This document shows positions 5,940 through 47,233 of a DNA stretch of 50,340 nucleotides, one piece after another. The notes beneath the pieces are model-generated. The model was not told the origin of the DNA. It worked only from the letters and a program-made list of their open reading frames with translations, and made no database searches. The translations under genes were made by a program, and so were the position numbers. The stretch's first letter is position 1; each line of letters starts with the position of its first letter. The DNA comes from an uncultured bacterium (GTDB lineage Bacteria; Patescibacteriota; Minisyncoccia; Phycocordibacterales; GWA1-40-21): assembly GCA_963840885.1 (NCBI GenBank), contig CAWJAN010000003.1, forward strand, positions 1 to 50,340, written 5' to 3'.

Positions 5940-6912
5940 ATGGATATTACATTACTGACGCGTAAGACAATACTTGTAACCGGCGGATGCGGCTTTCTCG
6001 GATCGAATCTTTGCGAAAAACTACTGAGTCTCGGGGCTTTTGTTGTTTGCGTAGACGATTTCTCTCAAGGAAAAGCTGCCAACGTAGCCGGCCTTATGAC
6101 TCATCCGAATTTCGAGTGCATAGAAAGTGATTGCAATGTTAGGAAATCCATAACTCCTATATTTAAGAAGCACAAAATCGACTATGTTTTTCACTATGCA
6201 GCAACAGTGGGAGTTAAGCGTACGATAGAGAACCCCCTAGCGGTTTTGGAAGATGGAGAAGGGATTAGGAATATTTTCATGTTATCTCATGAAAATAAGG
6301 ATTAAGAAGGTCGTCTTCGCATCGTCATCTGAAGTGTACGGTGAGCCCACTGAGCTTCCTGAGAAAGAAACGAGTCCCTTGGGTCCGGAGTTACCCTACG
6401 CGCTAGTGAAGTTGTTGGGCGAAAAATACTGTCTGGCATATTGGGAGAAGTATAGATTGCCTACCGTTGCTCTCCGATTCTTCAATGTATACGGCCCGAA
6501 ACAGGAAGCATCCGACTATGGATTCGTGGTTGGAATTTTTATAAAGCAGGCATTGGAGAACGAAAATCTAACTATTTTCGGCGACGGTACGCAAACCAGG
6601 GATTTTGTCTTTATAGAAGATAATGTAAATGCCGCAATTCATTCGTTAATTTCTGATAAAGCAAACGGCGAAGCCATAAATGTTGGTACAGGGAAACCGG
6701 TAACGGTACTCGAGTTGGCAAAGAAAATTATAGCATTATCAGGAAATGATGCTTCGCTTTCTTTTCTATCAAAGCGAAAGCAGGGCGAAATAACCCATCG
6801 TTACCCTGATATCAGGAAAATGGAAACACTCCTGGATTATAAACCTAGCATTACATTGGATGAAGGTCTGTTAAAAACCCTGGAATGGTATAAAAACTAT
6901 AGATCATTCTAA
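5940..6912 (+). CDS. NAD-dependent epimerase/dehydratase (SDR, UDP-sugar 4-epimerase/decarboxylase type); one frameshift near 6295
   Basis: ILVTGGCGFLGSNL, VVFASSSEVYGEP and the YxxxK region. ORFs 5940..6305 and 6253..6912 join if one G is removed at AAGGATT. Confidence 0.85.
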
Positions 6913-14722: not shown

Positions 14723-15554
14723 TAACATTGCTCTTGCCGCGGTTTGTGCTCTTATCTTACTGTTGTGTTTTAGCGTCCGTGATGCTTTTTTGGGAAACCT
14801 TAAGCAAACATTTTCTCATCACACCCTCCCGGGAGATTACATGAAGCTATCAGAATTTCTGAATACAAACGATTTTTCCAGGGGCTTATGGGTGCCCGCC
14901 ATTCAGCGATATGGGTTTCATAGTACTATGCATCCGAGCGTGAACGCGAATGATCTCTTTTCCGCATATGATATGAAGTCGCTTGATAAGCAATTACCAA
15001 CATCTGTCGCCGAGCGATTGATTCGTGACAGTTCCATTTCGTATATTGTTATCCCGGATGATACAGAAGGTGAGTTGTTTGTTCAGAACAGAAAATATGA
15101 CGATTCGCAGTATAGAGAAGCAATCGGAACACTCGATAGCATCTCCTGGCTACATAGGAAGATTACTTTTGGAAAAATCATGGTGTATGAGGTAGCGCAG
15201 CCCTCCTCCCATTTTTCTTTTGCATCGCCGTCAGCCGCAACAGTACAAGCAAAGATGATAAACCCAACTGAATATGTTCTTAACGTCCACAATGTACAAA
15301 AAGGTGATCAGCTCATCTTTAGGGAGATATATGACACCCATTGGCAAATGAGTGACAATGGTAATTTGATTAATGCAGGCCTATATGATAAGCTATTTAT
15401 GACTTTTATACTTCCAAGAAGCGGGTCGTATTCAGTTCCGTTGAAATACGAGCCGCAACAACTTTTGAATAGAAGTATGCTTATTAGTATATCTGCATTA
15501 GTATCTGCATTTGCGTTACTAGTTCTTTGTTACATCTGGAAAAAAGAAATATGA
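14712..15554 (+). CDS. hypothetical membrane-anchored extracytoplasmic protein
   Basis: Intact 280-aa ORF with N- and C-terminal TM segments. It overlaps its neighbours on both sides, as in an operon. Confidence 0.5.
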   Translation: MKNSNIALAAVCALILLLCFSVRDAFLGNLKQTFSHHTLPGDYMKLSEFLNTNDFSRGLWVPAIQRYGFHSTMHPSVNANDLFSAYDMKSLDKQLPTSVAERLIRDSSISYIVIPDDTEGELFVQNRKYDDSQYREAIGTLDSISWLHRKITFGKIMVYEVAQPSSHFSFASPSAATVQAKMINPTEYVLNVHNVQKGDQLIFREIYDTHWQMSDNGNLINAGLYDKLFMTFILPRSGSYSVPLKYEPQQLLNRSMLISISALVSAFALLVLCYIWKKEI

Positions 15555-16522
15555 TTAGTTTTATTATTCCACTTTTGAACGAAGAAGAAAATATTCCGCT
15601 CTTGTATAGCCGTCTACTAAAGGTGCTTCCTTCTTTGGATAAAACGCATGAACTTATCTTTATTGATGATGGTTCGCGTGACGGGTCTTTGGCAGTTTTA
15701 AAGAAACTGGGGGATAAAGATCGCACAATCCGCATTTTTTCCTTTAGACGAAATAGAGGGAAAGCTGAAGCGTTGACACTTGGCTTTCAAATGGCGAAAG
15801 GTAATATTATTGTAACCATGGATGCCGATCTTCAGGATATGCCCGAAGAAGTTGGGAAGCTGTTGAAAAAGCAGAAAGAAGGATATGATGTAGTTTCCGG
15901 ATGGAAGAAAGAACGGCACGATCCGATATATAAGACGATTGCCTCACGTGTCTTCAATCGAATCGTCGGGATTATGTTCGGCTTACGGCTTCATGACTAT
16001 AACTGCGGTCTAAAAGTGTATACGAAGGATGCGGCAAAGAGCTTGCGATTGTATGGGGGAATGTATCGATTTATTCCTCTTATGGCATATGAGCAGGGTT
16101 TCTCAGTAACCGAAGTTCCGGTTGAACATGCGAAGCGGCTTTATGGGAAGTCAAAATATGGATTTTCGAAGCTCTGGAAGGATCTTCCTGATCTCTTTAC
16201 TATGTTATTTTTGACTCGCTATGGAAAGAGGCCACTTCATTTCTTCGGGACTATAGGAAGTATTGCATTTGTAATTGGGATAAGTTTATTGCTCTATCTG
16301 ATGATATTGCAAACCTTTTATCATCAGGCTATCGGGAGACGCCCGCTTCTTTTCGGAAGTATTCTCCTCATCCTCAGCGGTCTCCAAATCGCATTTACCG
16401 GTTTTCTCGCGGATTTGATCATTAATGTTTTTCATAACCCACAACTGGAACGGGATCGTCTTCATTTTTATTTGAAATATGATAGTGATAAGGACGGCAG
16501 CGACGAGATTGTGGTGAAATGA
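15551..16522 (+). CDS. GT2 polyprenyl-phosphate glycosyltransferase (GtrB/ArnC/DPM1-like) with C-terminal TM helices
   Basis: MISFIIPLLNEEENIP, FIDDGSRDGS, TMDADLQD, YRFIP, two C-terminal TM helices. ATG 15551 overlaps the stop at 15552-15554. Confidence 0.85.
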   Translation: MISFIIPLLNEEENIPLLYSRLLKVLPSLDKTHELIFIDDGSRDGSLAVLKKLGDKDRTIRIFSFRRNRGKAEALTLGFQMAKGNIIVTMDADLQDMPEEVGKLLKKQKEGYDVVSGWKKERHDPIYKTIASRVFNRIVGIMFGLRLHDYNCGLKVYTKDAAKSLRLYGGMYRFIPLMAYEQGFSVTEVPVEHAKRLYGKSKYGFSKLWKDLPDLFTMLFLTRYGKRPLHFFGTIGSIAFVIGISLLLYLMILQTFYHQAIGRRPLLFGSILLILSGLQIAFTGFLADLIINVFHNPQLERDRLHFYLKYDSDKDGSDEIVVK

Positions 16523-16547
16523 GTATTAAGTATATAGTATTTAGTAT
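16522..16547 (+). repeat. AGTATWW heptamer array (26-mer AGTATTAAGTATATAGTATTTAGTAT)
   Basis: AGTAT recurs at a 7-nt period. The 26-mer is identical at 19801-19826 and near-identical at 17504-17536. The array starts on the last base of the stop codon. Confidence 0.9.
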
Positions 16548-16561
16548 AACAACTCTCTAGG

Positions 16562-16711
16562 TTTGTCATCCTGGCGCAGTCCAGGATCTCGGGGAACAGC
16601 AATGGACATTTTTAACCCTAAGGCTTGCAAGTCAAATGTACTTTAGGACTATCTGGTTAAAATAAAATACTGTTTGATTGACGAGATTCCGGACTTCGCC
16701 GGAATGACAAA
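16562..16711. mobile_element. 150-bp MITE-like element with 29-bp hairpin-bearing terminal inverted repeats (GTCAT...AATCTC family)
   Basis: Left end TTTGTCATCCTGGCGCAGTCCAGGATCTC. The reverse complement of the right end is TTTGTCATTCCGGCGAAGTCCGGAATCTC (24/29 identical). The mismatches at stem positions are compensatory. There is no ORF inside. Confidence 0.75.
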
Positions 16712-16722
16712 TAGCAACTAAC

Positions 16723-16935
16723 ATGAAAATTCAAGATATATTATTTTTCGCCATACTTTTATTCCTTCTTTTTAAACGAAAGAGTCAGTGGTTTGTTATT
16801 GGGGGGTTGGTTTGCCTGGCTGCATCAATTCCTCTCTTTGCTTTGAGGGTCTTCTTTACTGCTCAGCATTTGGTTTGGTATGCTGCCGGTTTCTTATTGG
16901 TTGCAATTGTTCTAAAATATAGAGAACTAGCATGA
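16723..16935 (+). CDS. small two-TM membrane protein
   Basis: 70-aa ORF, two hydrophobic helices, stop overlaps the next start (ATGA). Confidence 0.5.
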   Translation: MKIQDILFFAILLFLLFKRKSQWFVIGGLVCLAASIPLFALRVFFTAQHLVWYAAGFLLVAIVLKYRELA

Positions 16936-17501
16936 AAATCGGCATTGATATTTCCCAGATCGCTTATGAAGGAACCGGGGTAGGGAACCTTACCAGAAAA
17001 CTAGTTGAGAACTTAATTCTATTGGATACGGATAACGAATATATTCTCTTTTATTCATCTCTGAGGCGGAATTTCAATTTTCAAATTTCAAATTTCCAAT
17101 TAACACCAAACGCAAAAGTTAAAGAATTCAAGTTTCCACCAATATTCCTCGATTTTCTTTGGAATAAACTACATATTTTTCCTATTGAGTGGTTGATTGG
17201 GAAAGTTGACGTATTCCTCTCATCGGATTGGACTCAGCCCCCTACAAAGGCGAAAAAGGCTACAATTCTCTATGACCTCATTGTATATAAATATCCGAAG
17301 GAAACTCACGACCAGTTTAAGTTTGACTTTAAACGGCTTCGTATTATCCCAAATATCGTCGCTTCTCAAAAGAGACGATTGCATTGGGTGAAAAAAGAAT
17401 GTGATACTATTATCTGTATATCAGAAGCAACGAAAAAGGACGCGATGGAGGTTTTAGGAATATCGGAGAATAAGTTGAAGGTGGTTTATCCGGGATTTTA
17501 A
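16932..17501 (+). CDS. glycosyltransferase family 1, N-terminal domain only (truncated or split)
   Basis: MKIGIDISQIAYEGTGVGN ... ISEATKKDAMEVLGISENKLKVVYPGF then stop. The paralogue at 17947 continues past its equivalent VTYPGI into the EX7E domain. That half is missing here, and the heptamer array begins 3 nt after the stop. Confidence 0.75.
   Translation: MKIGIDISQIAYEGTGVGNLTRKLVENLILLDTDNEYILFYSSLRRNFNFQISNFQLTPNAKVKEFKFPPIFLDFLWNKLHIFPIEWLIGKVDVFLSSDWTQPPTKAKKATILYDLIVYKYPKETHDQFKFDFKRLRIIPNIVASQKRRLHWVKKECDTIICISEATKKDAMEVLGISENKLKVVYPGF
17070..17104 (+). repeat. AATTTCA heptamer tract (5 units) inside a CDS
   Basis: aatttca attttca aatttca aatttcc aattaac, translated NFNFQISNFQL. 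Confidence 0.9.
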
Positions 17502-17503
17502 AT

Positions 17504-17536
17504 AGTATTAAGTATATAGTATCTAGTATTTAGTAT
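17504..17536 (+). repeat. AGTATWW heptamer array, left arm of the cassette around the four-helix-bundle gene
   Basis: agtatta agtatat agtatct agtattt agtat, directly abutting ATG 17537. Confidence 0.9.
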
Positions 17537-17908
17537 ATGCAGAGAAGAATTAGCTCATTTACTGATTTAGTGTGTTGGCAGGAGGGACATAAACTAGTCT
17601 TGGATGTCTACAAAATAACCACAAATTTTCCTAAAACAGAAATTTATTGCTTAATTGACCAGATGAGGAGATGTGTGATTTCTATAACAAGTAACATAGC
17701 GGAGGGGTTCTCCAGGAGAAGTAAAAAGGAGAAAGACCAATTTTACTATATGGCATTGGGGTCATTAACTGAATTGCAAAATCAATTACTTGTTGCTAGA
17801 GATTTGAAGTATCTAACACCACAAGAGTTCTCTCGAATAGCAAGCCACACCGTACTCGTATCAAAACTCATTAGGGGGCTTTTAAAAAGTTCTGCTAATC
17901 ATTCTTGA
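17537..17908 (+). CDS. four-helix-bundle protein (23S rRNA intervening-sequence protein / Avd family, PF05635/TIGR02436-like)
   Basis: FTDLVCWQEGHKLVLDVYKITTNFPKTEIYCLIDQMRRCVISITSNIAEGFSRRSKKEKDQFYYMALGSLTELQNQL matches the family signature (W-Q, FP..E, Q.RR...SI..NIAEG, GS..EL). Confidence 0.9.
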   Translation: MQRRISSFTDLVCWQEGHKLVLDVYKITTNFPKTEIYCLIDQMRRCVISITSNIAEGFSRRSKKEKDQFYYMALGSLTELQNQLLVARDLKYLTPQEFSRIASHTVLVSKLIRGLLKSSANHS

Positions 17909-17942
17909 TACTAAATACTAAATACTAAATACTTTATACTAT
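17908..17942 (-). repeat. ATACTAA heptamer array, right arm (inverted with respect to 17504-17536)
   Basis: atactaa x3, atacttt, atactat. The reverse complement is AGTATWW units. The array begins on the last base of the TGA stop and ends 4 nt before ATG 17947. Confidence 0.9.
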
Positions 17943-17946
17943 TGTT

Positions 17947-19062: not shown

Positions 19063-19101
19063 CCTTTCTTGTAGATAATATTTTTATTTGCTTATCACCA
19101 A

Positions 19102-19186
19102 ATTGTTACATTGCTTCATTGTTTCATTGCTATAAAGAGCCATCTAATTGCATTAACAATGGAACAATCGAACAATGAAGCAATCG
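19102..19186. repeat. CATTG/CAATG octamer-periodic palindromic element, copy 1
   Basis: Left arm attgttac attgcttc attgtttc attgctat. Right arm aacaatgg aacaatcg aacaatga agcaatcg. It ends 8 nt before ATG 19194. Confidence 0.9.
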
Positions 19187-19193
19187 TTTATAT

Positions 19194-19787
19194 ATGAAAG
19201 ATAAAACAGGTAAAGTGTTAACTCCTCAGGAAACTGCTCGCAAGATACTCAATAGGATATCTAATATTCTTCTTGAACTCGATATATTCCTGCTTTTTAT
19301 CATCGGATGGGTTCCGATTCATCATGTCCGGCGGTTTTTCTATAGAGTTGCAGGAGTGAAAATTGGTCAGGGCTCGACCATCCATATGGGCACGGTATTT
19401 TATGATCCCAAGAATATTGAAGTTGGAAAGGATACTATCATTGGAGAAAGAGCCGTCTTGGATGGCCGGGCCATGCTTACTATCGGCGATCATGTGGATA
19501 TCGCTTCGGAAGTCATGATCTATAATTCCCAGCATGATGTGAACAGCGAGCATTTTACTGCGATCACAAAACCTGTTATCATTCAAGACTACGTCTTTAT
19601 CGGTCCGAGAGCAATTATTTTACCGGGAGTAACAATAGGGAAAGGCGCGGTAGTCGGTGCGGGAGCTGTTGTAACGAAAGATGTTGCTGATTTTTCAATT
19701 GTAGGTGGAGTGCCGGCGCAAGTCATTGGGGAAAGGAAGAATAAAGAATTGCATTATCGGTTAGGAAGAGCGAGATGGTTCAGGTAG
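19194..19787 (+). CDS. hexapeptide-repeat (LbH) O-acetyltransferase, WbbJ/Maa-like, with N-terminal TM segment
   Basis: IGERAVLDGRAMLTIGDHVDIASEV...IGPRAIILPGVTIGKGAVVGAGAVVTKDV...VGGVPAQVIG. Confidence 0.85.
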   Translation: MKDKTGKVLTPQETARKILNRISNILLELDIFLLFIIGWVPIHHVRRFFYRVAGVKIGQGSTIHMGTVFYDPKNIEVGKDTIIGERAVLDGRAMLTIGDHVDIASEVMIYNSQHDVNSEHFTAITKPVIIQDYVFIGPRAIILPGVTIGKGAVVGAGAVVTKDVADFSIVGGVPAQVIGERKNKELHYRLGRARWFR

Positions 19788-19793
19788 GAAGTA

Positions 19794-19828
19794 GGTATAT
19801 AGTATTAAGTATATAGTATTTAGTATTT
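19794..19828 (+). repeat. AGTATWW heptamer array containing the same 26-mer as 16522-16547
   Basis: ggtatat agtatta agtatat agtattt agtattt. Positions 19801-19826 are identical to 16522-16547. Confidence 0.9.
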
Positions 19829-19925
19829 TTTACATTATGAGCGAATCCCCTCCTCGGAGGGGACTACGAAGTAGAGGGGAGGGTTACGCAGGGTGAAAGA
19901 TCGGTAAACTTTCCATTTAGAAAAT

Positions 19926-24260: not shown

Positions 24261-24307
24261 TGGCCGACTAACGATTATATAATTTTCATACTATGGTTTA
24301 TTACATT

Positions 24308-24384
24308 ATTGTTCCATTGTTCGATTGCTCCATTGCTGAAGTAACAATTGAACAATGAGCGTAGCGATAGCAATGAAACAATGG
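24308..24384. repeat. CATTG/CAATG octamer-periodic palindromic element, copy 2
   Basis: attgttcc attgttcg attgctcc attgctga, loop, aacaattg aacaatga [gcgtagcgat] agcaatga aacaatgg. The last unit contains ATG 24381. Confidence 0.9.
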
Positions 24385-26047: not shown

Positions 26048-26152
26048 TGCTAACGCTCACTATTGTTCGCTCATTGCTCCATTGTTGTTTTAACAATTGA
26101 ACAATGAAACGAGTCCGACTCGGTGAAACAATTGAACAATTCTTACATTCCA
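26048..26152. repeat. CATTG/CAATG octamer-periodic palindromic element, copy 3
   Basis: The left arm has attgttcc, attgctaa, attgttcg, attgctcc, attgttgt. The right arm is aacaattg aacaatga aac[gagtccgactcg]gtg aaacaattg aacaattc. Confidence 0.9.
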
Positions 26153-27380: not shown

Positions 27381-27414
27381 AGGTTTTCTGCCAATAATAT
27401 TACGTATTTCTAGA

Positions 27415-27500
27415 ATTGTTCCATTGTTCGATTGTTTCATTGTTAAAGCGAAGCATAAAAAATCGCCTAGCAATTGAGCAATGAAGCAATGTAGCAATTG
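27415..27500. repeat. CATTG/CAATG octamer-periodic palindromic element, copy 4 (cleanest)
   Basis: attgttcc attgttcg attgtttc attgttaa, 22-nt spacer, agcaattg agcaatga agcaatgt agcaattg. Confidence 0.9.
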
Positions 27501-27553
27501 ATTAAAGAAAAATGTTTATTAAAAGAGCGAATATGAATTAGCAATAAATCTCT

Positions 27554-28654: not shown

Positions 28655-29787
28655 ATGAGAGTAGGAATTGATGCGAGGTTGTGGGATGAGACGGGGATTG
28701 GGAGATATATTCGGAATTTAGTAAAGTATCTTCAGGAAGTTGATCAAGCGAATGAGTATGTTTTGTTCGTATTAGGTAAAGATTATGGGAATGTCAAAGC
28801 ACTAATTTCTAATAAAAAATGGAAAGTAGTGATAGCTGATGTTCGGTGGCATAGTTTTGCAGAACAGATCAAGCTTTCAGGCATTTTATATAAGGAGAAG
28901 CTTGATCTGATGCACTTTCCCTATTATTCTTACCCCATTTTATATAGCGGAAAGTTTGTTGCCACTATTCATGACCTCATCCTTCTCCATTTTCCCACAG
29001 GAAAAGCGTCGAATTTGCCCCATGTTTTTTATAAAGCAAAACTATTCGCGTATAAATTGCTTACGAGGAACGCGGTGTTGCATGCTCAGCAAATTATTGC
29101 TGTATCAAATGCCACGAAACAGGAAATTGTAGATCACTACCATATTCCTAAAGATAAAATTACCGTAACATACGAAGGGGTAGATGAGCGCATGGATGGA
29201 CAACAGAATAAGCTTGTTGATACTAGATACAAAATACTACATACTAAATACTTTCTTTACGTCGGGAACGCCTATCCTCACAAAAATCTTGAAAGACTTA
29301 TCCAAGCGTTTGGGATATTTAAAAAAGATAATGGTTCAGATGTAAAGCTTATCTTAGTTGGTAAGAATAACTATTTTTATAAGCGGTTGGAGAAAACAAT
29401 TGACGCGTATAGTCTGCGCTCTGATATATTGGTTTTCCACGACGTTAACGATGAAGCGCTTGGGTACTTATATAAAAATGCGATTGCAACGGTTATCCCA
29501 TCGCTGATGGAGGGGTTCGGTCTTCCGGCTCTTGAGGCTATGAGTCAGAAATGCCTGGTAGTCGCGTCTGATATTCCATCAATCCGTGAAATTTGCGGAA
29601 TAACGCGTTATACTTTGACCTAAAAGTGATAAAGGATATTGCCGGCACGCTTTCTATGGTATATAAGAAGAGGAATGATTTTTCGGCACAAAAAACAGAT
29701 GGGGTGAAAAAAACATCTCAATTTTCCTGGAAGAAAATGGCTGCAGAAACAAAACAAGTTTATGAAAGTAGCGTTCGTATACGATAG
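28655..29787 (+). CDS. glycosyltransferase family 1 (GT4); one frameshift near 29600
   Basis: MRVGIDARLWDETGIGRYIRN, FLYVGNAYPHKN, PSLMEGFGLPALEAM. The C-terminus continues as NNALYFDL...SWKKMAAETKQVY (ORF 29593..29787). The first 20 codons of track ORF 28595 are repeat-encoded. Confidence 0.85.
29221..29255 (-). repeat. TACTNNN heptamer tract (5 units, AGTAT family in reverse orientation) inside a CDS
   Basis: tactaga tacaaaa tactaca tactaaa tactttc, translated DTRYKILHTKYF. Confidence 0.85.
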
Positions 29788-41320: not shown

Positions 41321-41608
41321 ATGAATAGAACAAAGATTTTTTTTGCATTGTTATTTGGTATCGTGGCTTTGTCGGCTGTTATTCAGGTATCGGCCTCAAA
41401 TTTTCTGTCGACTGATGGAATAGATTTGGCTCAAGTTCAAAACAGAATCGAAGCGTTAAAAAAAGAAAATATTCTTTTGAAACAAAAGATTTATGCCAGT
41501 GCTTCCTTGACAGAAATCGCGTCTGAAGCTGCGACTCTTGGATTTATTCCAAGTAATGACACCGTGTTTATCGATACCTCCTCGCAGCCCATCGCTATTA
41601 AACCATGA
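41321..41608 (+). CDS. ftsL: FtsL-like cell division protein
   Basis: 95 aa, single N-terminal TM helix, coiled-coil segment NRIEALKKENILLKQKI. It lies between rsmH and ftsI, and its stop overlaps the ftsI start. Confidence 0.7.
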   Translation: MNRTKIFFALLFGIVALSAVIQVSASNFLSTDGIDLAQVQNRIEALKKENILLKQKIYASASLTEIASEAATLGFIPSNDTVFIDTSSQPIAIKP

Positions 41609-43293
41609 CATGGCGTTACCACCTTATTCTGCTTTTCTTCGGTCTGGCATTCATGGCTATCACAGCAAAGCTCTTCTGGTGGCAGGTCGTAAAAGCTGAA
41701 GAGCTTTCAGATCTAGGTCAGGCACAGTACTCAAAAAATCTCCAAATAGAACCCATTCGGGGTGACATAAAAGCATCAGACGATTTTCCTCTCGCGACAA
41801 ATAAGCTATCATATCTTGTTTTCGCGAATCCGAAAGAAATTGGCGATAAAGAAGATACTGCAAATAAATTGGCACCCATTCTGGGCATGGACAGCGCGAC
41901 TATAAGCGGGAAGTTGACTCAAGATAAATTTTGGGTTCCGATAAAACCGAGTATCGATGAAGATACCAGAAAGACAATTGATGCGCTCCGTATACCTGGT
42001 GTTGGTTTTCAGGAGGAATATGGCAGGCTTTATACTGAAGCGTCAACAGCTGCACAACTTCTTGGATTTGTTGGTAAGGATACATTCGGAAATGATAAAG
42101 GGTATTTTGGCTTAGAAGGGTATTACGATAGGCAATTACGTGGCAGAGCAGGACAGGCAGTTATCATTAACGATGCATTTGGGCGTCCTGTTTTATCGAA
42201 ATTTGATGGTAGTTCCGGAGAGTTAGACGGCCGGTCATTTCTGACGCTCCATATTGATCGTGCTATCCAGTTCCTCGTTGAATCGAAATTAAAGGCAGGA
42301 ATTAATAAATACGGTGCTGAAAGCGGTATGGCTGCGGTCATGGACCCGGCAACCGGGGGTATACTGGCTATGTCGGCATTTCCATCATTTGATCCGAGAA
42401 GCTATGGAAATTACGATGTTTCACTGTATAAAAATCCCTTTATCACGGATACGTACGAACCAGGATCTACGTTTAAGCCTCTTGTTATGGCGGCAGGAAT
42501 GGAGTCTCATCTCATTACACCTACTTCGACCTGTCCTGTTTGCGGGGGTCCGGTTTCAAGTCGGAGGATACGATATCCATACTTGGAATGATCAGTATTT
42601 TGCTAACACCGATATGACGCACATCATGATTGACTCCAGACAATACCGGTATGGTGTATATTGCCCAAAGATTAGGCCTGGATCGTATGTTGTCGTATCT
42701 GGGTAAATATGGGATAGGAGATTCGACGGGGATAGATTTAGAAGGTGAGTTGGCACCGGGATTAAAACGCAACCGGATTGGTATCCGATTGATCTGGCGA
42801 CCGCGGGATTCGGGTCAGGGAATTTCTGTCACCCCCATAGAGCTTCTGGACGCATTTGCTACTATCGCGAATAAGGGTCAGCGTATGGAACCTCATGTCG
42901 TGTCGGAGATTACCACTCCTGATGGTCAGCAGATAACTATCCCGCCGAAAGTACTGGACCAGCCAATTGCTGAAGGAACTGCGAAAGTCATGACTGAAAT
43001 CTTAGTTCACGCAGTCGATGAGGGAGAGGCGAAGTTTGCCAGACTGGCAAAGGATATCGAATAGCCGGAAAGACCGGTACAGCGTCAATTCCACTGAACG
43101 GACATTATGATCCACGAAAACGATTGCTTCATTTATCGGATTCGCTCCAGCCGATAATCCAAAGTTTATTATGTTGGTTATCTTAAACAAGCCCACTGCT
43201 TCAATTTATGGCGCCGAAACCGCTGCGCCCATATTCTTCGACATCGCGAAAAACTTGCTGGTCTATTATGGAATTCCACCGAGTGGAGATTAA
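41605..43293 (+). CDS. ftsI: class B penicillin-binding protein (FtsI/PBP2-type transpeptidase); at least five frameshifts
   Basis: N-terminal TM helix and dimerisation domain, then STFKP (SxxK). SDN is readable after a shift near 42640, GFGQGISVTP after a compensated pair at about 42770/42815, and AGKTGTA after a shift near 43055. The C-terminus YYGIPPSGD ends at 43291-43293. Confidence 0.85.
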
Positions 43294-43297
43294 TGTC

Positions 43298-43702
43298 TGT
43301 CATTCCGGCTTGTCCGGAATCTCATCGACTTACACGAGGATTGATGGATTGAGTTGGTGGTAAAGATCCTTGAAGGTTGGATTCATCAGTTGATATGAGT
43401 TCTAACTTTATCTTTTCGTGACATATTTTTGATTTGTTTCTCTCTGATGATTGCTTGTGATGATCCTTCTATTGCCTCGTAATATATTAAGTTGTGTAGG
43501 TTATATTTCTGAGTAAATCCCTTTATAATCTCCAAGCTTGTGTTCTTGGAGTTCTTCGAAGTAGCATTATTCGTGACACCAGTGTATAAACGGGGTTGTT
43601 GCTCTTGTTACCCATAATGTAGACAAACATGTACTTGCTAGTCATACCGATTCAATTTACAGTCTACCAGATTGAAGAGATTCCGGACAAGCCGGAATGA
43701 CA
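43298..43702. mobile_element. 405-bp element with perfect 26-bp terminal inverted repeats enclosing a degenerate GIY-YIG nuclease gene
   Basis: TGTCATTCCGGCTTGTCCGGAATCTC at 43298-43323 is the exact reverse complement of 43677-43702. Each arm is itself a hairpin. Confidence 0.8.
43387..43645 (-). pseudogene. GIY-YIG (COG2827/URI-type) nuclease gene, spread over three frames
   Basis: The minus strand reads MTSKYMFVYIMGNKSNN, then YTGVTNN, LLRRT, EHK, and KGFTQKYNLHNLIYYEAIEGSSQAIIREKQIKNMSRKDK in different frames. Confidence 0.7.
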
Positions 43703-43707
43703 TATCA

Positions 43708-44037
43708 TCAACGTATATTCGTTCCTGGGGGAGTTTTTTTAAGAGGTTTAAGCGGCAGTGGTACTTTTCCGTCTGCGGCGAGGATCATGCCTTCGGAGAA
43801 TTCGCCCATCATCTTTCTGGGTTCTAAGTTGATTATGAAGACAAATGTTTTTCCTATAAGTTGCTCGGGGGTATAAAATTGTGAGATTCCGGAGAGGATG
43901 TTTCGCTGTCCTTCCGGACCGAAGTCGACTGTCAGACGAAGTAATTTGTTCGAACCCTCTTTGTGTTCACAGTTAAGAATTGTACCTACCCTGAGATCAA
44001 GTTTATCAAAATCTTCAAATGTAATAAGTGGTTTCAT
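43708..44037 (-). CDS. csaA: tRNA-binding domain protein (CsaA/Trbp111/EMAP-like)
   Basis: FDKLDLRVGTILNCE, LLRLTVDFG, ILSGISQFYTPEQLIGKTFVFIINLEPRKMMGEFSEGMILAA. Confidence 0.85.
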   Translation of the reverse strand: MKPLITFEDFDKLDLRVGTILNCEHKEGSNKLLRLTVDFGPEGQRNILSGISQFYTPEQLIGKTFVFIINLEPRKMMGEFSEGMILAADGKVPLPLKPLKKTPPGTNIR

Positions 44038-44040
44038 ATG

Positions 44041-44320
44041 CTATTGCGGCAGCTCTTCTAAATATTTATCCAATCTCTTCTCGAGTTCTTTTATTTGTTG
44101 ATTGTGGAGCTTTAGGAGTAACATGACGTCTAATATATCTTCACGAAGATCTTTTGTATTTTTATTCATATCCTTGAGATCCTTTCCATATATTCGGATA
44201 TCTTTCCCGACAGATTTAATATCCTGCTTGGTTGCCAGCTTTCGAAGATCGAGAAGTAATGGCTGAAGCGCATGCTTAAAAATTTTTCGTATCGCGCCTC
44301 AAATCTTTCGTCGTCAACAT
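44041..44320 (-). CDS. small coiled-coil protein, hypothetical; one frameshift at the A5T5 run near 44280
   Basis: MLTTKDLRRDTKNF, then in the adjacent frame KHALQPLLLDLRKLATKQDIKSVGKDIRIYGKDLKDMNKNTKDLREDIL...ELEKRLDKYLEELPQ. Its stop is 3 nt from the csaA start. Confidence 0.4.
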
Positions 44321-44464
44321 AGTAGCATCATAAATGTTTTTCTCACTCGGCGCAATCGGCAAACTGGACAAAGTCCGAATCTTATAGTACAATACTTTCG
44401 TGCTCGTGTCTTGTGATTGTTTGCAGACGCGAGCATATTTTGGTTTACGTTTCACTGTCTGTAG

Positions 44465-44526
44465 CCGGAGCACATTTGCAATGTGCTACGAAACGTTTCG
44501 GACCAGGTTGCAAACCTGCTCCGGCC
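44465..44526 (+). repeat. double-hairpin intergenic element (family B), minimal copy
   Basis: ccgg agcacat-ttgca-atgtgct acgAAACGTTTCGG accaggtt-gca-aacctgct CCGGcc. It has the same loops and linker as 37619-37784, with different stem sequences. Confidence 0.8.
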
Positions 44527-44548
44527 TCGATCGTGATATAATAATTTT

Positions 44549-45779
44549 ATGTGGCAGAAGACGAAGAATATCTATCATTTATTCGTAGCTGTCCTCGCAA
44601 ATGTCGTGTATCGTTTTCCCGGCCGTAAACTTACTGTTATCGGCGTTACAGGGACCGATGGAAAAACCACTACTGTCAATCTCATTTATCATATACTCAA
44701 ATCTGCAGGAAAATCCGTATCCATGATTTCCACAGTTGGAGCAAGTATTCATGGAGAGATTTATATCCTCTGTGGATTTTCACGCTCACAATCACCCTGA
44801 TTCATTCTTCATTGCAGAAAGTTTTTATCGAAAGCAGTAAAGGGGAGGAGAAAGCAAAGAGAACTTCATCTTGTTCTCGAAGTCTCCTCTCACGGGGCTT
44901 GATCAATATAAGCCATGGGGTATTCCATTTAAAGTCGGGGGTTATAACGAATATTACTAACGAGCATTTGGCATTATCATAAGACATATGATAATTATCT
45001 TCTCATGCGAAAGCAAAACTTCTCAAGAAAGCAAAGATCTGGGCACTCTTCTCAATAAGGATGATGGAGCTTTCGAAAAGCTGCAGCGAACACTTACACA
45101 TCAGAAACTGGTTACGTATGGCATTCGCTCGGCTGTTGATGTTTCTCCGAAATCGTTTCCGTTTACATCCCGTCTGCCCGGCGAATTTAATACATACAAT
45201 ATGCTTGCCGCAATCGCAGTTTGTACATCTCTTGGTATTTCCAATGAAAAAATAAAAGACGGGTTAGCTTCGTTTACGCTACCCTTAGGCAGGATGAACA
45301 TGATAAAAAACGGGATGGGAATGGATATATTTGTCGACTATGCACACACCCCAAATGCTCTCACTCAAGCATTAACGACGCTCAATTCGATGAGGAAGAA
45401 AAACTCAAAAATAATTTCGATCATCGGAGCGGAAGGGTATAGAGATATCAAGAAACGTCCAAAGTTGGGAGAAATTGCCATGTCCCTTTCTGATAGAGTT
45501 ATTATTACATCGGTCGATCCGCGGGGACTGATGGATGAGATAAATAAGGCTATTTTAACTGGTGCTAAAAAGGCAGGAGGAGAATTGGGAAAAAACGTAT
45601 TTATTGAACCTGATAGACAAAAGGCAATCGATATGGCAATACACACGTTAGGTAAAAAAGGCGATATTATTGGGATCTTCGGAAAAGGCCACGAGAGGTC
45701 AATGAATATGGATGGCAAGCACGAGCTCCCATGGAGTGACTATGAAGCAGTGGAAACAGCGTTAAGAGCGAGGGCATAG
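44549..45779 (+). CDS. murE: UDP-N-acetylmuramoyl-tripeptide synthetase MurE; dense frameshift cluster at 44770-45045
   Basis: VIGVTGTDGKTTT. VLEVSSHG, LDQYKPWGIPFKVG, VITNITNEHL and AKAKLLKKAK are each readable in a different frame. ORF 44988..45779 follows (DYAHTPNAL, IIGAEGYRD). Confidence 0.8.
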
Positions 45780-47164: not shown

Positions 47165-47174
47165 ATATTATTCT

Positions 47175-47233
47175 AACAATTGAACAATGAAGCAATGGAG
47201 CCACGTAGAACGTGGCAAGCAATGAAACAATTC
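47175..47233 (+). repeat. CAATG octamer module (right-arm type only) with central mini-hairpin, copy 5
   Basis: aacaattg aacaatga agcaatgg a[gccacgtagaacgtggc]a agcaatga aacaattc, 56 nt upstream of murC. Confidence 0.9.

Follow-up and report, generated by a model that had tools for sequence, protein, structure and literature searches.

A stretch of 150 bp lies between two genes of an uncultured patescibacterium, and its ends form hairpins like those on either side of a small GIY-YIG gene 27 kb away. What kind of element is it, and did it arrive as one mobile piece? A sequence-only reading of this DNA had described it as an ORF-less miniature element built like the GIY-YIG cassette and shaped by selection on DNA or RNA structure, and had suggested, by comparison with REP/RAYT and MITE systems, that it is a non-autonomous partner of the nuclease-bearing element. 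We followed up these claims in the window (the whole stretch of DNA that was analysed, 50,340 nucleotides) and in other genomes and metagenomes.

The element and its hairpin ends

The element lies in a 200-bp gap between a GT2 glycosyltransferase gene (15527-16522) and an ORF for a 70-aa membrane protein (16723-16935), directly after a stop codon and within a co-directional row of genes. Its parts are given here under the names that we justify below, with SRM standing for Ssn-related motif.

16562-16711: the 150-bp element, two inverted ends and a spacer, in the gap between two genes
16562..16590, plus strand: left SRM, composed of TTT, GTC, stem ATCCTGG, loop CGCAGT, stem CCAGGAT, C and TC
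16591..16682, no strand: spacer, AT-rich, 35.9% GC, 92 bp
16683..16711, minus strand: right SRM, composed of TTT, GTC, stem ATTCCGG, loop CGAAGT, stem CCGGAAT, C and TC

The left end (16562-16590) reads TTTGTCATCCTGGCGCAGTCCAGGATCTC, and the right end (16683-16711), which points inward at the left one, reads TTTGTCATTCCGGCGAAGTCCGGAATCTC as its reverse complement. The two are identical at 24 of 29 positions, with mismatches at positions 9, 11, 16, 22 and 24. Position 16 lies in the loop; in the stem, 9 pairs with 24 and 11 with 22. The earlier description of the ends is therefore accurate: four of the five differences make up two compensated stem pairs, and each end, when single-stranded, still forms a perfect 7-bp DNA hairpin (-5.3 kcal/mol on the left, -5.7 kcal/mol on the right). 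Beyond the core of the motif family, the ends have in common TTT before GTC, five of six loop bases and CTCG after the stem. The element measures 144 bp from GTC to GTC, and its ends are richer in GC (52-55%) than its spacer (36%). It is indeed ORF-less, as ORFs wholly within it do not exceed 22-27 aa; the spacer itself is free of ORFs, and neither an Rfam match nor any relative was detected for it.

Within the 50-kb window, the pattern GTCATYCYGG-N4-10-CCRGRATCTC has four matches, at 16565-16590 (+), 16683-16708 (-), 43299-43323 (+) and 43677-43701 (-), and it has none in 100 shuffles. A covariance model of the motif, run over the whole window, returned only those four sites (E 2e-8 to 6e-7), with the rest at E > 1. 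It places the left SRM at 16561-16593 (E 5.9e-7) and the right SRM at 16680-16712 (E 2.3e-8). The exact core of the right SRM, 24-25 nt, recurs in dozens of metagenome contigs.

Relation to the Ssn nucleases

[quoted passage not shown] The same work defined the NTS of Neisseria and the broader class of SRMs as oriented hairpins preceded by three conserved nucleotides, with a C directly after the palindrome that is critical. SsnA, a GIY-YIG protein of 94 aa, binds the hairpin as single-stranded DNA only, not as RNA, and cuts a few nucleotides upstream of it; cleavage depends above all on the three bases before the palindrome, and binding above all on the C that follows it. The NTS-ssnA-NTS layout was likened to insertion sequences and to REP/RAYT, and cutting and binding were demonstrated only for four enzymes of Neisseria and Wolbachia (PMC11893778).

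All four sites in the window have GTC followed by a perfect 7-bp palindrome, and all four have a C directly after it (...CCAGGAT-C, ...CCGGAAT-C). The GTC and post-palindrome C columns are invariant in an alignment of 64 motif sequences. In addition, a relative of the window's GIY-YIG protein (39% identity, E 2e-17; locus L063) has on both flanks sequences that depart from the published NTS consensus of Neisseria by no more than one mismatch. The GTC-palindrome-C plan at all four sites, together with these near-canonical NTS flanks, identifies the ends of the element, on sequence grounds, as SRMs. The shared plan also confirms the end architecture that had been proposed to link the element with the GIY-YIG cassette.

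The published search pattern, HGTCWYN(0-2)YYVSBRHN(0-5)WNVSBRGN(0-2)RNCYNB, matches none of the four window hairpins (0/4). Of the 279 perfect GTCAT-hairpin-C motifs near ssn relatives it finds only 29, and those with 6-7-bp stems all escape it. Since the pattern is a search heuristic derived from 29 genomes of four phyla (PMC11893778), we read the mismatch as marking a variant and not as an exclusion. The sequence data thus speak with good confidence for an isolated, inward-facing pair of SRMs around a 92-bp AT-rich spacer, that is, a gene-less counterpart of the SRM-ssn-SRM cassette. An element of this kind is covered by the existing 2025 account; what is new is the 7-bp-stem variant of Patescibacteria, occurring as an isolated gene-less pair. 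In the literature on GIY-YIG combined with miniature, inverted repeat or hairpin, nothing came nearer than PMC11893778.

The other two sites of the window belong to a cassette of 403 bp, 27 kb from the element, in which inverted SRMs lie on either side of a GIY-YIG gene.

43298..43323, plus strand: SRM on the 3' flank of the ssn pseudogene, stem ATTCCGG, loop CTTGT
43339..43636, minus strand: ssn-type single-domain GIY-YIG gene, decayed (by Pfam and tblastn)
43677..43703, minus strand: SRM on the 5' flank of the ssn pseudogene, stem and loop identical to the copy at 43298

The two motifs match the covariance model with E 2.1e-7 (43298..43323, hairpin -6.4 kcal/mol) and E 1e-7 (43677..43703), and the inverted repeat is 97% complementary. 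The cassette cannot be called nuclease-bearing in the sense of the earlier reading. The homology of the gene between the motifs (between 43324 and 43676) is split over three reading frames (tblastn HSPs in frames -3, -2 and -1), and the near-invariant R31/H35 of the family (the Arg and His after TGVTNN) are replaced. When stitched together, the protein matches Pfam PF01541 (GIY-YIG) with E 5.6e-8; a search of NCBIfam gave no match, and the nearest PDB structures are the UPF0213 proteins 1zg2 (E 1e-6) and 1ywl (E 2e-4). Indirectly, the near-canonical NTS on either side of the homologue at L063 speak for a place in the Ssn family. As read, the only ssn copy in the 50-kb window is a pseudogene, and no working nuclease is encoded there, so the SRM sites of the element may be relics. 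Frameshifts affect three adjacent genes in the region 41605-45779, namely a penicillin-binding protein in at least three pieces, ssn in three frames and a Mur ligase in two pieces; in the rest of the window the long genes are uninterrupted. These frameshifts reflect either local assembly or sequencing error or genuine decay.

Relatives of the window's GIY-YIG protein are single-domain proteins, mostly of 92-115 aa, that are common in Patescibacteria and many other phyla. We examined the flanks of 80 loci with such relatives in GTDB genomes from many phyla (1.2 Mb). The layout is repeated across phyla, with GTCAT-stem-loop-stem-ATC upstream of ssn and its reverse complement downstream, and the stem sequences vary by lineage (TTCTGG, TTCCGG, TTCCCGC, TCCTGAA, TTGCGAGG). 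Of the 2409 GTCAT occurrences in the 80 loci, 276 lead into a perfect hairpin (6 bp or more) with a C behind it; in reversed-sequence controls, 2 of 1642 do so. Several of the relatives' proteins end in ...ILDKPE and the stop codon, and one starts with MSFRLVRN, which is translated hairpin; the ssn gene is thus tightly bounded by the motif.

Under a perfect-stem criterion, inward pairs in the 80 loci fall into two classes. The first comprises 28 ssn-containing cassettes that measure 334-439 bp, a layout present at 28 of the 80 loci, and in 28 of 28, as in the window, the gene between the motifs is of the GIY-YIG type. The second comprises ORF-less pairs of 52-154 bp from 21 sources, with the window's unit at the long end of the range. 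Adjacent SRMs (spacers of up to 250 bp for inward pairs) are arranged inward in 56 cases, in tandem in 12 and outward in 36, and the outward pairs are largely a product of arrays of inward ones.

Gene-less pairs can be multi-copy. OZ245366.1 (Thermodesulfobacteriota) has 19 copies of a 76-bp gene-less unit, 91-100% identical, at two loci 124 kb apart, and another genome (locus L068) has three 122-bp gene-less units next to ssn, 86-89% identical, one of them with a different yet perfect stem at one end. In OZ245366.1 the 76-bp SRM pair is tandemly repeated about every 112 bp, and these arrays flank two copies of ssn on either side.

L035 9357-10910, and L036 2419-2718 and 9852-11033: arrays of OZ245366.1, of BIME/NIME-like organisation

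The two ends of a pair tend to differ in gene-less units, with unlike stems in 28 of 33 pairs, and to agree in cassettes, where stems are unlike in 9 of 29 and the same in 20 of 29 (Fisher 2e-5). The contrast may mean that long perfect palindromes are avoided, or that the two ends arose independently.

To follow stem changes through the family, we aligned 150 covariance-model matches (118 distinct), an alignment that is itself fitted to the structure. In it 96.3% of stem cells are paired; shuffling lowers the figure to 76.2%, and sliding the partners to 55% or less. Five of the eight stem pairs have changed on both sides, with 177 double-change cells where 47 are expected, and the two pairs that vary in the window (U-A/C-G and C-G/U-A) are among the variable pairs of the family. 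A metagenome scan with GTCATYCYGGCGNAGTCCRGRATC, in which the two variable pairs are unconstrained on either side and no pairing is required, gave 122 matches, and 110 of these keep both pairs Watson-Crick (Fisher 2e-13 and 1e-14; as the metagenome sequences are not phylogenetically independent, these p-values are overstated, but the direction is clear). The sequence comparisons thus bear out the expected excess of compensatory over other stem changes, and support selection on the hairpin at the level of the family. The earlier wording, selection on DNA or RNA structure, can be narrowed: the DNA half stands and the RNA half falls, since the cognate nuclease binds single-stranded DNA and not RNA.

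Origin of the 150-bp unit

Five syntenic relatives, with GT2 identities of 62-71%, allow the GT2/small-ORF junction to be compared. In four of them the junction is tight and free of the motif: the small ORF starts directly at the GT2 stop in one (L002), the two genes overlap in another (L205), and 5 bp (L206) and 56 bp (L204) separate them in the remaining two. From these four of five relatives, the element is to be seen as a gain and not as a conserved terminator, the outcome that had been named as fatal to the earlier reading. The fifth relative (L001, 71% identical) has about 145 bp at the junction, with one minus-strand, long-loop SRM-like sequence (6620-6692) that contains one stem mismatch. 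It scores under the covariance-model threshold, and it aligns to significant long-loop copies in a Curtissbacteria genome (L004). By sequence, this suggests that the junction has acquired SRM-type motifs at least twice.

Repeats of other kinds are found nearby. Two more intergenic repeat families, of AGTAT/ATACT and CAATG/CATTG type, occur just past gene ends, often as palindromic pairs.

AGTAT/ATACT- and CAATG/CATTG-type repeats, first group: 16517-16556, 17499-17538, 19782-19835, 29220-29254
AGTAT/ATACT- and CAATG/CATTG-type repeats, second group: 19101-19202, 24307-24358, 26073-26107, 27397-27503, 47171-47209

An AGTAT arm adjoins the 150-bp element on its left, and the gap therefore holds two kinds of repeat. 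At 17501-17943, a 23S-rRNA-IVP/four-helix-bundle gene (17537-17908, PF05635) sits inside 36-nt inverted repeats of the AGTAT-type short repeats (17501-17536 / 17908-17943, 92% complementary). This gene is absent from the corresponding junction of the relatives, where the gaps are 2-3 bp (L204, L206) or hold a short palindrome of another simple repeat (L001). The layout of the locus, a small gene within an intergenic palindrome, is that of SRM-ssn-SRM. The 189-aa ORF before it (16932-17501) corresponds only to the N-terminal half of a GT4 glycosyltransferase. All five relatives likewise have the half-length ORF as a gene of its own, with a full GT4 after it, which shows that it is not the result of truncation by the adjacent IVP cassette.

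How did the pair come to lie at the junction? The course by which the motifs of the window spread is something we infer. The whole 150-bp unit, interior included, is single-copy in the window and about 1.9 Mb of fetched loci (200-odd), where blastn with the element and its interior matched hairpin cores only. The spacer and the ssn cassette have no significant local similarity (149 of 500 shuffles score as well). A target-site duplication is found at neither window pair (flanks CTAGGTTT / AAATAGCA and TAATGTCT / ATATCATC), and flanking direct repeats in 82 distinct pairs are at the level of a shuffled-partner control. In the metagenome scan, 109 of 122 matches have no inward partner, and for the loop subtype of the element (CGNAGT) only 1 of 120 contigs has ssn nearby. 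With an interior that is unique in the data searched and a nuclease gene in view that is a pseudogene, the proposed role as non-autonomous partner of the nuclease element goes unsupported.

It is possible, though we lean against it, that two solo SRMs came to lie side by side through independent insertions or SRM-templated recombinations, much as a small NIME/BIME cluster might accrete. The unlike stems of the element would then be no surprise, being usual in gene-less pairs but not in cassettes, and solo motifs of its subtype predominate in metagenomes. The junction also seems prone to accumulate repeats, as judged from the second repeat family, with its arm at 16517-16556, and from the single SRM-like sequence of another subtype that L001 has at the same place. 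However, the TTT, loop bases and CTCG common to both ends suggest descent from one source, and adjacent SRMs are far more often inward (56) than tandem (12). Such accretion fits the spacer, duplication, partner and stem data about as well as movement of the 150-bp unit does.

Rather doubtful, in our view, is an origin of the whole unit as an internally deleted ssn cassette that Ssn, acting in trans, excised and inserted in one piece. The ends of the element are those of a cassette, four relatives have a tight junction where the unit was gained, whole gene-less SRM pairs occur elsewhere in multiple copies that conserve the interior, and NTS-ssnA-NTS has been found to resemble an insertion sequence (PMC11893778). 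Against this, the interior has neither similarity to the cassette nor a second copy where we searched, and the two ends belong to different SRM subtypes, with a loop type (CGNAGT) unlike that of the cassette (CTTGT). The rarity of ssn near this loop subtype, the many partnerless matches and the lack of target-site duplications above the shuffled control also speak against it. Moreover, we know of no strand-transfer activity in GIY-YIG nucleases.

More general, and unlikely, is the idea that gene-less SRM pairs are true non-autonomous transposable units, moved by the GIY-YIG single-strand nuclease, whose hairpin-guided cuts, on opposite strands and just beyond either end, would release or copy the unit without duplicating the target. 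Were it true, the movement of units by a GIY-YIG enzyme would be transposition or homing chemistry new for this class, and the surplus of gene-less pairs with heterologous stems would be either a rule of the mechanism or a sign that perfect long palindromes are avoided.

We consider it very unlikely that the element works at the RNA level, be it as a terminator, as a hairpin that stabilises mRNA or as a small RNA, between GT2 and the downstream ORF. The transcript would fold strongly (-56.9 kcal/mol, z = -5.5), its location right after a stop codon in a co-directional row would suit such a function, and REP-type hairpins are known to stabilise upstream mRNA. But neither hairpin has a U-tract or a terminator call, and Rfam yielded no match, either in the whole window at gathering thresholds or in 16400-16900 under permissive settings. 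Four of five syntenic relatives do without the element, with genes that abut or overlap, and a terminator role leaves unexplained why inverted copies of the motif occur on both sides of ssn in many phyla. SsnA, finally, does not bind RNA (PMC11893778). An intrinsic terminator in particular was rejected on the missing terminator call and on the absence of the hairpin from four of the five relatives.

A classical MITE derived from an insertion sequence with a DDE transposase and terminal inverted repeats is least probable of all: the 29-nt inverted ends, the length of 150 bp and the intergenic location would fit, but neither window pair has a flanking direct repeat, the 82 pairs do not exceed their shuffled control, the sole gene found between such ends is a 95-aa GIY-YIG gene, and the ends are self-complementary hairpins instead of simple terminal inverted repeats.

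Taking the element as an isolated, gene-less SRM pair, we can outline how it might work. When the DNA is single-stranded, during replication, repair, transformation or conjugation, each arm would form a separate 7-bp hairpin on the strand that carries it. If the characterised Ssn enzymes are a guide, an Ssn nuclease would bind the hairpin and its 3' C, and cut a few nucleotides 5' of GTC. As the two motifs face inward, two cuts would result, just outside the unit and on opposite strands. We infer that an Ssn enzyme of the source organism acts on the sites of the element; this enzyme would necessarily be encoded off this contig.

Significance and comparison with known systems

These findings place the Ssn/SRM hairpin-nuclease system in Patescibacteria (CPR), whose tiny genomes make any selfish or recombination-modulating repeat worth noting. 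They also show that the published SRM pattern undercounts the family, with about one hairpin in ten found in the loci examined and the 7-bp-stem variants missed. Published SRM counts therefore probably understate the family, especially in Patescibacteria. The comparison with relatives documents cleanly how a motif was gained between two genes that otherwise abut, which bears on the question of SRM spread. For specificity assays, ATCCTGG and ATTCCGG could serve as natural compensatory stem variants.

DDE-type MITEs have in common with the element that they are small and ORF-less, with inverted ends shared with a gene-carrying element. They differ from it in that the window pairs lack a target-site duplication, on which the MITE reading fails in its classical form, in that each end of the element is complementary to itself, and in that the partner gene encodes a nuclease of 95 aa, for which no integrase activity is known to us.

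REP/BIME and RAYT resemble the system more closely. Here too, extragenic palindromes form hairpins as single-stranded DNA, occur singly, in inverted pairs and in arrays, bracket a small nuclease gene and show no target-site duplication; the element can be likened to a REP pair of a BIME. RAYT, however, is an IS200/IS605-like Y1 HUH transposase, whereas the gene in the window is of the GIY-YIG type. The head of REP is a GTAG/GTGG tetranucleotide, as compared with GTC in the window motif. The resemblance is one of logic and not of homology. The REP/RAYT comparison in the sequence-only reading accordingly stands as an analogy, one also drawn in PMC11893778, and not as family membership.

The NIMEs of Neisseria (dRS3-RS-dRS3) consist of hairpin repeats in inverted pairs that flank an "RS" spacer of about 50-150 bp (Bentley et al. 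2007, PMC1797815), and dRS3 is the core of NTS (PMC11893778). The element is like them in its GC-rich ends and GC-poor spacer (52-55% and 36% in the window), and NIMEs, like SRM pairs, come as isolated units and as arrays. The spacers of NIMEs form repeat families, whereas that of the window is unique in the data searched; the window has a single unit and no array, and its hairpins have ATTCCGG/ATCCTGG in place of ATTCCC-N8-GGGAAT.

Compared with Ssn/SRM as published (PMC11893778), the stems in the window are shorter, 7 bp as against 8 or more, the host belongs to the Patescibacteria/CPR, a group unnamed in the main text of that paper, and the local ssn is a pseudogene. The motifs of the window are known from sequence, and the biochemistry comes from the enzymes of Neisseria and Wolbachia. 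The likeness extends to the oriented GTC-palindrome-C motif, the inverted copies that flank a small GIY-YIG gene, the gene-less copies and the variation of stems between lineages. The 2025 picture thus remains unchanged, with its host range and its motif definition extended.
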